Assembly: GCA_016839945.1 (NCBI GenBank)
Contig: JAEOTE010000037.1
Span: forward strand, 1-14,773
From: Candidatus Heimdallarchaeota archaeon
GTDB lineage: Archaea > Asgardarchaeota > Heimdallarchaeia > Heimdallarchaeales > Heimdallarchaeaceae
Length of the DNA: 14,773 nucleotides
Direction: 5' to 3'
The notes beneath the pieces are model-generated. The model did no database searches. It was not told the origin of the DNA and saw nothing but the letters and a program-made list of their open reading frames with translations. Made by a program: the position numbers and the translations under genes. Shown one piece after another: positions 4,545-9,716 of this stretch (position 1 is the stretch's first letter; the number at the start of each line of letters is the position of its first letter).

Positions 4545-4847
4545 CTACTTCTTTTTCATAGCTTTTAGTATGTCACTATCTCCCATTTCATGAAGAGTTA
4601 AAACTGCTACAAAATGAGGTCTCCCACAAACCGCTCCTAGATCATATGAAGAACTTGGAAATTCTAATACAGGAATCTCTGATAAATTTGCATAACGATA
4701 AACATCATCTTTTATATTTTGAGGTGTGTTTTTTGCCACTATAACGAGCTTTGCTTGCTTATTAAGCAAGGATTTCATGGCTAATTCAGTTCCATAGGAT
4801 ACTTTTCCAGTATCTACTGCTATTCTTATACTTCTGTTCAAATCCAT
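4545..4847 (-). CDS. rpl30e: 50S ribosomal protein L30e
   Basis: AVDTGKV.YG, KLVIVAKN, DLGAVCGRPH and GDSDIL motifs; GGTGA Shine-Dalgarno 6 nt upstream of the ATG. Confidence 0.98.
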   Translation of the reverse strand: MDLNRSIRIAVDTGKVSYGTELAMKSLLNKQAKLVIVAKNTPQNIKDDVYRYANLSEIPVLEFPSSSYDLGAVCGRPHFVAVLTLHEMGDSDILKAMKKK

Positions 4848-4940: not shown

Positions 4941-5831
4941 TTATATTTCAAAAGCTCCTGTAAATAGTGCATCCCAAGCTTTACTCCAACGATCTGGGTG
5001 TGCCACATCAATCCAAAAAGCAGTTTTAGGGCAAATATACGCTTTTAATTTCTTGTCTTTTATTAGTAAGGGAATAATATCATTCGAAATGGATTTCCCC
5101 TCTGATTCATTCAAGTAATCAAAAATTGCAGGTTCAAAAACATAAATTCCTGTGTCAATATATCCACTTTGTTGGGATTTTGTAGGTGTTTCTTCAAATT
5201 TTACAACTTGATAACCAGTTAAATCATCAACATAAAAGACACCATAATCCGAAAAAACCGCTTTATCACTTTCTTTTCCCATTGATAAATAATAATCATT
5301 TACACTTACACCACAAATAGTTGCAATAGATTCTTTCTTATGGCCCTTATGAAAGTCTATTATGCTTTCCAGTTTTATATCAGTTAAAATGTCTGAATTC
5401 ATGACAATAAATGTTCCAGTAACAAGGTTTCTAGCATTATAGATAGCTCCTGCTGTATCAAGATTTGATGATTCACTTACATAACTAATATCCAATCCGT
5501 TCCAATTTTGACCAAAGTGTTTCATTACTCTATTTCCTAGCTTTCCAATCAGTAGAACAACATCAGTAATTCCACTTTTTGCAATTAACTCCAAATTATA
5601 TTCAAGCAATGGTTTATAGCCTACTGGAATCATTGCTTTGGGGATAGATTCGGTTAAAGGTTTTAATCTTGCTCCCTCTCCTCCAGCAAGAATAAGGGCT
5701 TTTATTTTTCGAAGCTCAAATTCTTTCTCAATGATTTTAATTAGAAAATCCTTTATAGATCCAGATCCTTTTTTCTCTCTTAGTGCATCCCAAATTCTTT
5801 CAGGAAATTCCACTGTAAATTTATGTACCAT
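4941..5831 (-). CDS. Sugar-phosphate nucleotidyltransferase-family protein with N-terminal ribbon-helix-helix-like extension
   Basis: ILAGGEGARLKPLT...PK signature, NSD, YGV and WID motifs. The ~40-aa N-terminus KFTVEFPERIWDAL...SIKDFLIKIIE fits an RHH pattern. Start is ATG 5831 or GTG 5840. Confidence 0.85.
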   Translation of the reverse strand: MVHKFTVEFPERIWDALREKKGSGSIKDFLIKIIEKEFELRKIKALILAGGEGARLKPLTESIPKAMIPVGYKPLLEYNLELIAKSGITDVVLLIGKLGNRVMKHFGQNWNGLDISYVSESSNLDTAGAIYNARNLVTGTFIVMNSDILTDIKLESIIDFHKGHKKESIATICGVSVNDYYLSMGKESDKAVFSDYGVFYVDDLTGYQVVKFEETPTKSQQSGYIDTGIYVFEPAIFDYLNESEGKSISNDIIPLLIKDKKLKAYICPKTAFWIDVAHPDRWSKAWDALFTGAFEI

Positions 5832-5843
5832 AATTATCACACT

Positions 5844-5880
5844 TAATTATACGTATTTTATCAACATAATTATATGTATT
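5844..5880. repeat. 14-bp direct repeat TAATTATA(C/T)GTATT x2, candidate operator
   Basis: 5844-5857 taattatacgtatt and 5867-5880 taattatatgtatt are 13/14 identical with a 23-bp period. The first copy contains the palindrome ATACGTAT. Confidence 0.5.
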
Positions 5881-6011
5881 ATATTCTAGATTGGTTCTTT
5901 TATTTGTTTTTGTTTCTGTAGTAACGTTATAAAGAATCAATTCAATGAAACCAATAACCTTTTTAAAATTCTGCAATAATGGGTTGTTAGTTTCGCGAAT
6001 TATAGGTGAAA

Positions 6012-7118
6012 ATGCTGTCTAATAGAATATCTACAACAAAACATGCAATGGAAAGACAAAAAAGAAAACAGGAAATAGCTGAAAAATACAATTTTTCACT
6101 TGACCAAATTCTTGATTTAAGTACAGGTGACAATCTTTTCATTCCTCCTTCTATGATTCAAAAAACTCTAATAAAAGAAATCCAAGCAATTGATTTGCGT
6201 GAAAGTTACCCTATAGATTATTATTCGATTATTGAGGAAATTTCCCGATTTGTGGGAGTTCAGACCTCACATATTTATCCAGGTTTAACCCATGGTCAGC
6301 TTATTCAACGATTAGTCTCAGTTATCACTAAAGTTGAAGATACAGTTTTATTACTTAATCCAGATAAGGGGATATATTACCAAATAGCAACTAATAATAA
6401 ATTGAACATTCAGACTGTAGATTTAACAGATAATTTTGAACTGGATTTTGAAGCGCTATTACTGAAAATTAAAGAAATTAAACCAAAAGCAATCATTTTT
6501 TCTTCTCCGCATTATCCAACAGCTAATCAATTTCAAGAAAATGAGATCTTAACTCTTGCTAAAGAAATAGAAACACAAATCATCATAGATGAATCATATG
6601 TTGAATTTGGAAAATACACACTTTCTAATCAAGTTCAATTCTTCGATAATTTATCAGTAGTTAGATCTTTTTCCAAAGCATGGGGATTAGGAGCAATTTC
6701 GTGCGGATATGTTGTATCCAACCCAGAGCTAATTAATAATTTGAAAGAAAATTTTCTAATTGAAGAGATTCCTCCAATTCATCTCTTAGCTACAAATTAT
6801 GTCTTGAGAACGCCCTACAAATTCTTTGAACTAATTAATAGTTTCATTACCGAAAGAAAAAGAGTAATTGAGCACTTGAGAATGTTGAAAGGGTTGAAGA
6901 TATATAGAAGTGATACAAATTTTCTTTTTATTAAATTCAAACAAGATGTAAAAGAATTATATAATCAGCTGTGTAGTAAAGGGATAATTATACAAACTTT
7001 TGAGAAATATAGGCAATTTAAAGACAGAGAAAAATATTTCTTAGTTACTTTGGGGGATGTAAGTATAAATGATCGCTTTATTCTAGCTATCATCGAGCTT
7101 CTGGAATCTATTTTGTAG
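6012..7118 (+). CDS. HisC/CobD-like class I/II PLP-dependent protein with degenerate active-site motifs
   Basis: DESYVEF and RSFSKAWGL (Schiff-base Lys), YP and TNF motifs and overall HisC length. AGGTGA precedes ATG 6012 (ORF open from GTG 6006). Confidence 0.85.
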   Translation: MLSNRISTTKHAMERQKRKQEIAEKYNFSLDQILDLSTGDNLFIPPSMIQKTLIKEIQAIDLRESYPIDYYSIIEEISRFVGVQTSHIYPGLTHGQLIQRLVSVITKVEDTVLLLNPDKGIYYQIATNNKLNIQTVDLTDNFELDFEALLLKIKEIKPKAIIFSSPHYPTANQFQENEILTLAKEIETQIIIDESYVEFGKYTLSNQVQFFDNLSVVRSFSKAWGLGAISCGYVVSNPELINNLKENFLIEEIPPIHLLATNYVLRTPYKFFELINSFITERKRVIEHLRMLKGLKIYRSDTNFLFIKFKQDVKELYNQLCSKGIIIQTFEKYRQFKDREKYFLVTLGDVSINDRFILAIIELLESIL

Positions 7119-7655: not shown

Positions 7656-8502
7656 TAAGATCATCAAAATTAAATTTGAGTAACTTTTCTCTTACACGTT
7701 CTATGTAATTATCTGAAAATCTTATGAAATTAATTTTATCTTTTGATTCAGATACAGAAATGGATTCTTTGTATCCTAAGCTATAATAGGATTTACCATC
7801 AATAACAACTTTTCCAGCTCTATATTTGCTTAGATTTTTGATTTTTATTTCTTTATCTGAAGGTATGACTATTGGTACTATTTTCTTAGAAAAAGGGCAT
7901 ACTGGCACAAGTATGACTGCATTAATATTGGGCATGAGTAAGGAACCTCCTGCTGATAAAGAATGTGCACTTGAACCTGTACAACTCGCTACAAGTAATC
8001 CGTCACCGTACAAGGTGTAGAAATATTGACCATCAACATATACTTTTAGCAATAGATTTTGCCCTACATTATCTGAAGCTACAAGTACATCGTTAACAGC
8101 TGAAAAGTTTGGATAATTTTCAGAGTATATTGATATTGTATTATGTTCTTCAATGAAATATTCTTGTTTTTCAATTTTATTTATGGCTTCTTCAAATTCT
8201 TCAGGAACTATTTCAGATAGAAAACCAACTCTTCCACAGTTAATGCCTAAAATTGGAGTATTTTTCCAGCTCGCGAAAGTTTTCAGAATTGTTCCATCTC
8301 CCCCAAAAACCATAATAAGATCTATTTTATCATCTTTACAAGCTTTGTATTCATCATCGATTTTCTTAGCTAAGAAGCTATCAAGAAGCACTTTATATCC
8401 TTTCTTTTTCAATTTACTAAAAGCATCTATTGCAAATTTCTTTGAATCAGCCTTTTTTGAACTTGTAATTAATATACATGATTCTTTGGATATCAAATGC
8501 AT
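7642..8502 (-). CDS. nadK: NAD(+) kinase
   Basis: GGDGT, GINCGRVGFL, ND and GDGLLVASCTGSSAHSLSAGG motifs. Confidence 0.95.
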   Translation of the reverse strand: MHLISKESCILITSSKKADSKKFAIDAFSKLKKKGYKVLLDSFLAKKIDDEYKACKDDKIDLIMVFGGDGTILKTFASWKNTPILGINCGRVGFLSEIVPEEFEEAINKIEKQEYFIEEHNTISIYSENYPNFSAVNDVLVASDNVGQNLLLKVYVDGQYFYTLYGDGLLVASCTGSSAHSLSAGGSLLMPNINAVILVPVCPFSKKIVPIVIPSDKEIKIKNLSKYRAGKVVIDGKSYYSLGYKESISVSESKDKINFIRFSDNYIERVREKLLKFNFDDLNEDK

Positions 8503-8549
8503 CTTATGATATGAGAAAGATTCAAATTTAAAAAAGTTAGGTATTGACT

Positions 8550-9716
8550 TTATTTTTTTCTCAATTTAGCAATAAAATATCCTAAAGTATTATCCATTCC
8601 GGGTAAGAACCTTTGAAATGGGGAATCATATTTCTCATGAATAGATCCCATTTTTGATAATTTATATTGTTGTTCTAAAATTCTGAAATTGTAATTTTCT
8701 GCGAATTTGCTTATAATCTCCTCATTTTCTTCTTTAGTGATTGTACATGTAGAATATACAATTGTCCCTCCTGGTTTAAGTAAACTATTGCAAGCATAGA
8801 TTATTGCTTTTTGATATTTTGACAAATCCTTTATTCTTTTAATAGATGTATTAAAAACCAAACGTGGTCTTAATCCCAATGAAGAACAAGGGGGATCAAT
8901 TAATATCTTATCAAATTTAACTGTCCAAGTGTCGCTAAAATCTATTATATTACCAATTTTGATTGATATGTTCTTAATTTTGAATTGTTCAATTCTATTT
9001 CTTAATTTTTGTATTCTTTTTTTAGACCTGTCCACTGCTATTATCTTTGACTTATTTCCCAATAGCTCACTTAGATGTAAGGTTTTGTTTCCAGGAGCTG
9101 CACAACAATCCAGAATTGTTTCGTTAGATTTTGGCTCTAAGTTCATTGAAGTAAGAAAAGCAGGAACACTTTGAAAAAATACAGGATAATCCTTTAATCC
9201 AGATTGTTCTAAACTTGGAACTCTATATGGAGATGCTAGGTTTTTTGCAGCTACTCCATGCTTCTTATTCAGCATTTCATGATGACTCATTAACGCTTTA
9301 GCTTTAGCAACGGCTATTCCTTGTTGATTTACTATTTGAACAAAATCATTTTTTTTAACTCTATTTGCTCGTTTAACGCCTGGCACGAAAACATCTGCCC
9401 CTTGATAAACCATTTCAGCAGCTTGATTATCCACGATTATTTCTTTGAGATGCTCTGTTGATTTCAGTTTAAATTTCCCTTTAGGGGTACAAATGATCAA
9501 ATTAGGAAAAATGTCATGTACTTTAGCACTAAAGTTATTTTTATGTAACAAATCCAAGATTTTATCGGCTATTGATACTTCTTGGTAAATATGTAAACTA
9601 TAATCTTCTGTAGGAGTTATAATTTTCTGAAGAAAATTTCGACTTCGCTTTTTTCCTAATAATTCCAATAAATATTTCTTCATTTCTTCTGAAATAAGTG
9701 GTAACTTGGAAGCCAT
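8550..9716 (-). CDS. PUA-domain RsmB/NOP2-family RNA m5C methyltransferase (NSUN6-like)
   Basis: PUA segment AEMVYQGADVFVPGV; DCCAAPGNKT (motif I), DPPCS (motif IV) and YSTCT (motif VI), with both catalytic Cys present. Confidence 0.92.
   Translation of the reverse strand: MASKLPLISEEMKKYLLELLGKKRSRNFLQKIITPTEDYSLHIYQEVSIADKILDLLHKNNFSAKVHDIFPNLIICTPKGKFKLKSTEHLKEIIVDNQAAEMVYQGADVFVPGVKRANRVKKNDFVQIVNQQGIAVAKAKALMSHHEMLNKKHGVAAKNLASPYRVPSLEQSGLKDYPVFFQSVPAFLTSMNLEPKSNETILDCCAAPGNKTLHLSELLGNKSKIIAVDRSKKRIQKLRNRIEQFKIKNISIKIGNIIDFSDTWTVKFDKILIDPPCSSLGLRPRLVFNTSIKRIKDLSKYQKAIIYACNSLLKPGGTIVYSTCTITKEENEEIISKFAENYNFRILEQQYKLSKMGSIHEKYDSPFQRFLPGMDNTLGYFIAKLRKK

Follow-up and report, generated by a model that had tools for sequence, protein, structure and literature searches.

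The window analyzed here is a whole 14,773-nt stretch of DNA, contig JAEOTE010000037.1 of a Candidatus Heimdallarchaeota archaeon (assembly GCA_016839945.1), and it encodes a 296-residue protein in which a ribbon-helix-helix (RHH)-like N-terminus is joined to a nucleotidyltransferase (NTase) fold. We propose that this two-domain RHH-NTase is the Heimdallarchaeaceae member of a widespread family and that it acts as a ligand-responsive DNA-binding regulator or trigger enzyme, a reading to which we give about an even chance. The first-pass annotation had suggested that the enzyme fold was repurposed as a ligand sensor. For the family as a whole a ligand-sensing regulator is well supported, by selective erosion of catalytic residues, by a sister Heimdallarchaeial family that reads as a pseudoenzyme and by a repeat upstream of relatives in the candidate phyla radiation (CPR). 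For the window protein the same claim is only partly supported, since its catalytic residues on the nucleotide side are kept and no conserved operator was found for it.

The N-terminal RHH-like domain

The gene and its two domains are placed as follows.

4941..5831, reverse strand: RHH-NTase gene, 296 amino acids, from the open reading frame and its translation, with the start ATG at 5831
5703..5831, reverse strand: N-terminal RHH-like domain, residues 1-43, from AlphaFold2 (AF2) secondary structure, structural neighbors and the ratio of nonsynonymous to synonymous differences (pN/pS)
4989..5702, reverse strand: NTP_transferase (PF00483) domain, residues 44-281, from Pfam and Foldseek

The assignment of the N-terminus to the RHH fold, made beforehand from the letters of the sequence, is supported by structure comparison and by profile alignment. 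In the AF2 model, residues 3-9 form a strand (within an extended segment, 1-10), followed by a helix (11-21), a G-S-G-S turn and a second helix (26-42) that passes straight into strand 1 of the enzyme with almost no linker; the predicted local distance difference test score (pLDDT) is 87.9 for the full-length model and 83 for the isolated N-terminal domain. When the isolated domain was compared with 48,161 PDB representatives (exhaustive VIA comparison), the top 50 matches were essentially only RHH proteins (Z 4-5.8, root-mean-square deviation 1.5-2.7 over 41-43 residues). They include the PutA RHH, TacA, NikR, AmrZ, Arc, MazE, ParD, omega and ParG, the best being PutA52 (Z 5.8, root-mean-square deviation 1.6 over 42 residues). 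The best Foldseek matches were also RHH proteins, and are not significant at such a short query length. Using hhalign, 12 Heimdall-type N-termini aligned in register over 42 columns with the RHH_1-positive N-termini of related fusions (P 8e-4, at a probability of only 25%). A mixed N-terminal profile searched against PDB sequences gave weak CopG matches only (E 0.24), and nothing usable came from querying the Atlas features with residues 1-46.

Translation of the N-terminus, on which the RHH proposal had also depended, is indicated by strong constraint: codons 1-43 have a pN/pS of 0.10 and the remaining codons one of 0.23 over 283 diverged pairs, and mean column conservation is 0.88 in the N-terminus versus 0.82 in the enzyme domain. 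Full-length orthologs from 28 genome loci, 62-99% identical, were aligned, and MVHKF is the N-terminal start of all of them. The family shows no variation at His3, Lys4, Thr6, Glu8, Gly22 and Lys27 and almost none at Ser25; the RHH-type glycine turn and the serine at the start of helix 2 are present as K-G-S-G-S-I-K. Lys4, Thr6 and Glu8, at alternate strand positions, and the G-x-G-S-I-K opening of helix 2 fall at what we take, from established knowledge of RHH-DNA complexes, to be the DNA-contact positions. By predicted fold and by context, residues 1-43 are well supported as a divergent RHH domain.

Catalytic residues of the nucleotidyltransferase domain

Residues 44-281 match PF00483 with 134.2 bits against a cut-off of 21.2 (E 7.5e-39), and the best Foldseek matches of the domain are tlr0611, VTC1, GMPPB and MurU (E about 1e-22 to 1e-20). 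Many NCBIfam sugar-1-phosphate nucleotidyltransferase models were also matched, all below threshold. The relevant features of the domain are these.

5652..5693, reverse strand: intact nucleoside triphosphate (NTP)-binding signature ILAGGEGARLKPLT, residues 47-60, from motif alignment; Gly53 in 29/29 and Arg55 in 28/29 of the family
5253..5294, reverse strand: family-specific insertion YYLSMGKESDKAVF, residues 180-193, with invariant Lys190, from alignments; pLDDT 65-76
5187..5189, reverse strand: Thr215 codon, at the site of the (F)xEKP lysine; Lys in 111/111 homologs without the fusion, T/P/S/I/L/K/R in the family
5082..5084, reverse strand: Asn250 codon, equivalent of VTC1 Lys196; Lys/Arg in 80/111 homologs without the fusion, variable in the family

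As the first-pass annotation had it, the NTP-binding motif is intact, GGEGARLKPLT and the lysine of IPKA both being present and the motif conserved across the family. The altered substrate-side motifs that it listed (FEETP, LDTAGA, NSD, IDTG and WIDVAHP) all occur in the translation, with the qualifications that the catalytic Asp is retained in NSD and that 24 of 29 family members read INTG where the window protein has IDTG. The extra loop is real, a 14-residue insertion absent from all nonfamily homologs. A C-terminal beta-helix is indeed lacking: there is no hexapeptide or beta-helix tail, and the final element of the AF2 model is a helix (279-291). Short-form NTases (GMPPB/VTC1, CugP-type tlr0611, MurU and RmlA) share the fold and the NTP signature at 27-30% identity, whereas the window protein differs from them by the added RHH, the insertion, Lys215 to Thr, Lys to Asn250, Gly125 to Asp and the missing beta-helix. 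The genome holds six further PF00483 paralogs, so the RHH-NTase protein would not be needed for housekeeping synthesis.

Among 29 family sequences, Gly53, Lys65, Asp147, Glu214 and Asp275 are invariant, including the Mg-binding/catalytic aspartates Asp147 and Asp275, and Arg55 is found in 28. Of its sugar-phosphate and catalytic residues, the window protein lacks just Lys215 and Lys250. VTC1 Lys196, which contacts the phosphate of mannose 1-phosphate (PMC9168903), is the counterpart of Asn250, a second phosphate-contact residue that is also gone; the family has G/S/N/R/K here. The lysine-to-threonine change at position 215, which had been singled out for an alignment of homologs, holds in one part of the family: crown-clade members have T/P/S/I/L, and basal members keep K or R. 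With the NTP-side residues kept and the two lysines for the phosphate of the sugar 1-phosphate lost, the window protein probably works as a trigger enzyme, or else its activity is weak or altered and it is heading to a pure sensor.

Wider sampling places this loss in a family trend. Six core positions (Gly53, Arg55 with Arg or Lys accepted, Lys65, Asp147, Lys215 and Asp275) were scored in 151 best representatives, with and without the RHH fusion. At least one noncanonical core residue occurs in 34/40 fused versus 10/111 unfused representatives (Fisher's exact p 7.6e-19), a comparison in which the clusters are phylogenetically nonindependent and the fused set may be more divergent overall because the N-terminus adds to the score of fused matches. 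By position, the counts are as follows.

Arg55 as Arg: fused 11/40, unfused 110/111
Lys65: fused 32/40, unfused 111/111
Lys215: fused 32/40, unfused 111/111
Asp275: fused 31/40, unfused 106/111

Asp147 is kept in all 40 fused representatives, and the base- and sugar-pocket residues Thr126, Gly197 and Gly228 are each present in at least 95% of the fused set. As judged from these alignments, erosion is mainly at phosphate-handling residues (the G-loop, Lys65, Lys215 and Asp275), Asp147 excepted.

The process has gone furthest in f5, the second Heimdallarchaeial family with the fusion and a member of the same class as the window's own family, f1. All 14 f5 genomes sampled have Arg55 changed to Ser/Gly, Lys65 to Ala/Pro, Glu214-Lys215 to SS, SG or similar, and Asp275 to His, and the N-terminal domain is almost unchanged despite the lost catalytic residues. 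By these substitutions f5 is clearly to be read as a conserved pseudoenzyme. Its gene lies between polyprenyl synthase and GT2 glycosyltransferase genes in 7/7 loci examined; in L099 (3954-7419) and L116-L121 the RHH-NTase and these flanking genes are all on one strand. A stand-alone 58-residue RHH_1 gene stands two genes beyond in six of the seven f5 loci.

A catalytically dead NTase fold need not act on DNA. Two papers (PMC11228364, PMC9168903) describe GMPPA as noncatalytic, binding GDP-mannose and regulating GMPPB, and so as an NTase fold serving as a nucleotide-sugar sensor after catalysis was lost. On this precedent the RHH-NTases could be GMPPA-like regulatory subunits that bind a nucleoside diphosphate (NDP)-sugar and modulate a paralog or glycosyltransferase by protein-protein contact, without binding DNA. 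The six paralogs in the genome and the position of the f5 pseudoenzyme gene beside a GT2 and a polyprenyl synthase gene would suit such a role. However, GMPPA has no DNA-binding domain and acts through its own beta-helix, which carries the GMPPA/GMPPB contacts (PMC9168903) and has no equivalent in the RHH-NTases; the RHH fold and the operator-like site of the CPR relatives point to DNA instead, and we regard a GMPPA-like subunit as highly improbable.

Distribution, upstream sites and gene neighborhood

A profile of the N-terminal 43 residues, searched against 301 genomes of the phylum, found matches in two families only, f1 (25/28 genomes) and f5 (19/21), and none in the 28 other families. The gene is always present in one copy, in an open frame of about 283-323 codons, and is nearly universal in these two Heimdallarchaeial families. 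Full-length relatives 62-99% identical to the window protein include those encoded by Ca. Heimdallarchaeum aukensis and endolithica, whose genomes are complete. One locus, L018 (JBHLQZ010000017.1; NTase 99% identical, neighbors 91-98%), was deposited as 'Candidatus Thorarchaeota archaeon', probably a taxonomic misassignment because the other phylum-labeled full-length relatives are all Heimdallarchaeota.

Beyond the phylum, a profile search of 1.84 billion representatives recovered about 40 clusters (50% identity) with the RHH-NTase architecture, consisting of an N-terminal extension of 43-48 residues and a short NTase, 257-318 residues overall. The majority N-terminus is CPR-type, R-[LI]-T-I-T-L ... 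NRSHAIE; Pfam RHH_1 matched it in 26/32, and its profile matches the E. coli NikR RHH with E 9.8e-8. Six more clusters, one annotated Hodarchaeales, have the Heimdall-type N-terminus HK[FY]T[IV]EF..W..G.G.IKD[FY]I. The ESM Atlas contains two-domain look-alikes from Nitrososphaerota and Roizmaniibacteriota (TM 0.81-0.84 over residues 3-296), clusters with PF00483 and PF01402 from Methanobacteriota (80% of members) and Roizmaniibacteriota (18%), and archaeal PF00483 clusters of 278-286 residues from Bathyarchaeota, Nanobdellota and Woesearchaeota. A tree of the NTase domain unites the window protein with further Heimdall-type members in starred clades. Monophyly of the 40 fused proteins was not rejected (approximately unbiased test, p 0.39), a result consistent with, though no proof of, a single origin of the fusion. 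Literature searches for RHH with this NTase family found no paper describing the architecture, and the family is apparently undescribed.

The CPR relatives carry a candidate operator. A scan of 254 kb from 35 CPR-type loci, covering both strands, found TATGA-N5-6-TATGA 34 times, 32 of them upstream of the fused gene on the gene's strand and 21 within 150 nt upstream of it. The site consists of direct repeats in tandem, TATGAT-N3-GTATGA, recurring every 10 bp (L046-L097, e.g. L089, L084, L085, L072 and L096). Of five whole CPR genomes, four contain a single copy of the exact form, TATGATNNNGTATGA, and one contains two, against 0-1 for a reversed control; every genome has such a site before its RHH-NTase gene. 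The half-site of E. coli NikR is GTATGA (PMC7055735), and its inclusion in the repeat unit fits the NikR-like strand of the CPR proteins. We see in this strong comparative evidence that the CPR branch would bind DNA and autoregulate.

The corresponding DNA of the window and the genes on either side are listed next.

5841..5884, no strand assigned: direct repeat directly upstream of the start codon, two copies of 21 nt (core TAATTATAYGTATT) with a 23-bp period
5832..6005, no strand assigned: divergent intergenic region shared by the RHH-NTase and aminotransferase genes, from footprinting across 25 loci
6006..7118, forward strand: HisC/CobD-like class I/II aminotransferase, divergent from the RHH-NTase gene, from Pfam and NCBIfam
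4545..4847, reverse strand: rpl30e, downstream neighbor, from Pfam; orientation and adjacency vary in L041, L042/43 and L098

Footprinting found two conserved blocks, AAAACTAAAAAG and AAAAAACCTATTGGTT, in most relatives, and these may be promoter elements. One Heimdall subclade (L023, L026, L027, L029, L033 and L044) has two copies of a conserved upstream block, AAACTAAA, spaced at a 17-18 bp period and lying some 45-65 nt before the start of the NTase gene.

Beside the limits of the residue census given above, several results weigh against a ligand-sensing, DNA-binding regulator. The direct repeat of the window was found only there and in the 99%-identical L018, is not conserved in relatives and is not enriched genome-wide (12 matches vs 17 for the control). 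Neither conserved intergenic block is enriched genome-wide, AAAACTAAAAAG being no commoner than its control; no k-mers are common to the f1 and f5 upstream regions, and AAACCTATT, seen near both, occurs at control frequency. On the protein side, residues 1-43 and the 12 Heimdall-type N-termini matched no Pfam model, RHH models included. An earlier hhalign comparison of 15 Heimdall with 7 CPR N-termini was not significant and improved only with more diverse rows. Both AF2 alignments held CPR RHH rows that may have biased the models, which are of monomers. The window's own family conserves Gly53, Arg55, Lys65, Asp147 and Asp275, so catalysis may persist in the window protein; invariant Lys218, or Lys190 of the insertion, might substitute for Lys215, and full enzyme activity is conceivable.

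Such a protein could be an ordinary active short-form nucleotidyltransferase whose RHH-like extension is a dimerization module that replaces the beta-helix and binds no DNA. The conserved NTP-side residues and both Mg-binding aspartates, the retention of the sugar contacts Glu214, Gly197 and Asn/Asp226, the lack of a Heimdall-type operator among the sites searched and, in the predicted model, the continuation of helix 2 into enzyme strand 1 would all follow from it. A module serving only to dimerize is harder to reconcile with the invariance of solvent-facing His3, Lys4, Thr6 and Glu8 and with an N-terminus more constrained than the enzyme domain. Nor does continued catalysis sit well with position 215, which drifts through T/P/S/I/L where every one of the 111 unfused proteins has Lys, or with f5, which loses catalysis and keeps its N-terminus; the operator-like site of the CPR relatives also tells against the dimerization-module reading. 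We consider this explanation unlikely, though the least so of the alternatives to a ligand-responsive regulator.

The gene neighborhood bears on possible targets. The first-pass annotation had noted the position of the gene just upstream of rpl30e-nusA. The position is correct: rpl30e begins 93 nt beyond the end of the RHH-NTase gene and nusA then follows, and on the same strand lie rpl30e, the gene of a NusA-type KH protein and a SWIM-like gene. The idea that the RHH-NTase is linked to rpl30e-nusA by regulation did not hold up: basal lineages have lost or inverted the arrangement, with rpl30e divergent from the RHH-NTase gene in L041 and L098 and missing from the neighborhood in Ca. Heimdallarchaeum, and we rejected the link as synteny only. 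What is retained instead is adjacency to the HisC-like aminotransferase gene, which adjoins the NTase gene in 28/28 Heimdall loci in several orientations (mostly divergent; NTase then aminotransferase in L041; aminotransferase then NTase in L042/43). This suggests a functional or regulatory pairing, with the caution that the RHH-NTase, the aminotransferase and their neighbors all belong to one conserved syntenic block.

The aminotransferase is the best hisC match of the genome, at 170 bits against a cut-off of 277. The 88%-complete genome yielded no IGPD and no HisD, and none of its proteins scored as HisC above the curated cut-off, so a role of the enzyme in histidine synthesis is unlikely, and a housekeeping HisC was set aside as a description of it. 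HisC and CobD enzymes use phosphorylated substrates. An active NTase with a nonsugar acceptor can be imagined here, in which a phospho-amine from the HisC/CobD-like neighbor is converted to an NDP-activated amino alcohol and the RHH autoregulates the divergent pair. This would make sense of an adjacency that survives at least three rearrangements, of an aminotransferase that is probably not housekeeping HisC and resembles enzymes of phosphorylated substrates, and of an NTP site retained where the sugar-phosphate lysines are gone; PDB 6pd1 is a fused NTase/aminotransferase. Against that, the sugar-hydroxyl-binding residues are conserved, the aminotransferase of L098 is three genes off, the f5 partners are polyprenyl synthase and a GT2 glycosyltransferase, and synteny alone may explain the adjacency. 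We judge this pathway distinctly unlikely.

Two further observations concern neighboring genes. In CPR loci L017 (5853-6599) and L014-L016 (around 7949-8686) a TrmB-family regulator gene lies directly downstream or two genes off, with genes for glucosamine-6-phosphate isomerase-like, IspD-like NTase, HAD and PfkB proteins in the vicinity. In L005 (8532-12891) the neighboring rpoB product is 1637 residues long with an intein (PF14890); the window RpoB has 1138 residues and no intein.

A candidate nucleotide-sugar sensor and its precedents

Under the preferred reading of the family as ligand-responsive DNA-binding regulators, the RHH beta-ribbon would join two chains into a DNA-binding dimer, the NTase-fold domain would take a nucleotide ligand (NTP-Mg or an NDP-sugar), and ligand occupancy would alter DNA binding, as in NikR or PutA, in which an RHH is combined with a ligand-binding or enzymatic body. 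What the analysis shows is the two-domain architecture, the predicted RHH fold and the strong constraint on it, the erosion of catalysis across the family and the operator-like site of the CPR relatives; that the window protein binds DNA, what it takes as ligand and which genes it would control are inferred.

NikR, a nickel-responsive repressor, has an N-terminal RHH and a ligand-binding body on a single chain; it is among the top structural neighbors of the window N-terminus (Z 5.6), and both the N-terminal profile of the CPR relatives and the GTATGA of their upstream repeats recall the E. coli protein. In contrast to NikR, whose C-terminal domain is an ACT-like metal-binding domain and whose site is GTATGA-N16-TCATAC, the RHH-NTases have an NTase fold, and the CPR sites are direct repeats with a 10-bp period; the Heimdall-type strand is HKFTVEF, not RVTITL. 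PutA, a proline-catabolic trigger enzyme, likewise has an RHH DNA-binding domain fused to an enzyme body, but of an unrelated fold, and it is fully catalytic whereas catalysis here is doubtful and has been lost in many family members.

More broadly, RHH-NTase fusions may be widespread nucleotide- or nucleotide-sugar-sensing transcription factors (CPR, DPANN, Thaumarchaeota, Methanobacteriota and Heimdallarchaeia) that arose from sugar nucleotidyltransferases and repeatedly decayed to pseudoenzymes, the Heimdallarchaeial branch coupling nucleotide-sugar status to glycosylation genes or to an unknown aminotransferase pathway; we hold this view tentatively, at slightly less than an even chance. 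If true, it would add a new type of sensor to the few RHH one-component regulators, and it would capture the passage from enzyme fold to ligand sensor at intact, partly eroded and fully dead stages. The CPR branch offers a protein together with a candidate operator, TATGAT-N3-GTATGA. The Heimdallarchaeial families are among the archaea nearest eukaryotes, and for these uncultured organisms the RHH-NTase would provide a handle on the regulation of nucleotide sugars and glycosylation.

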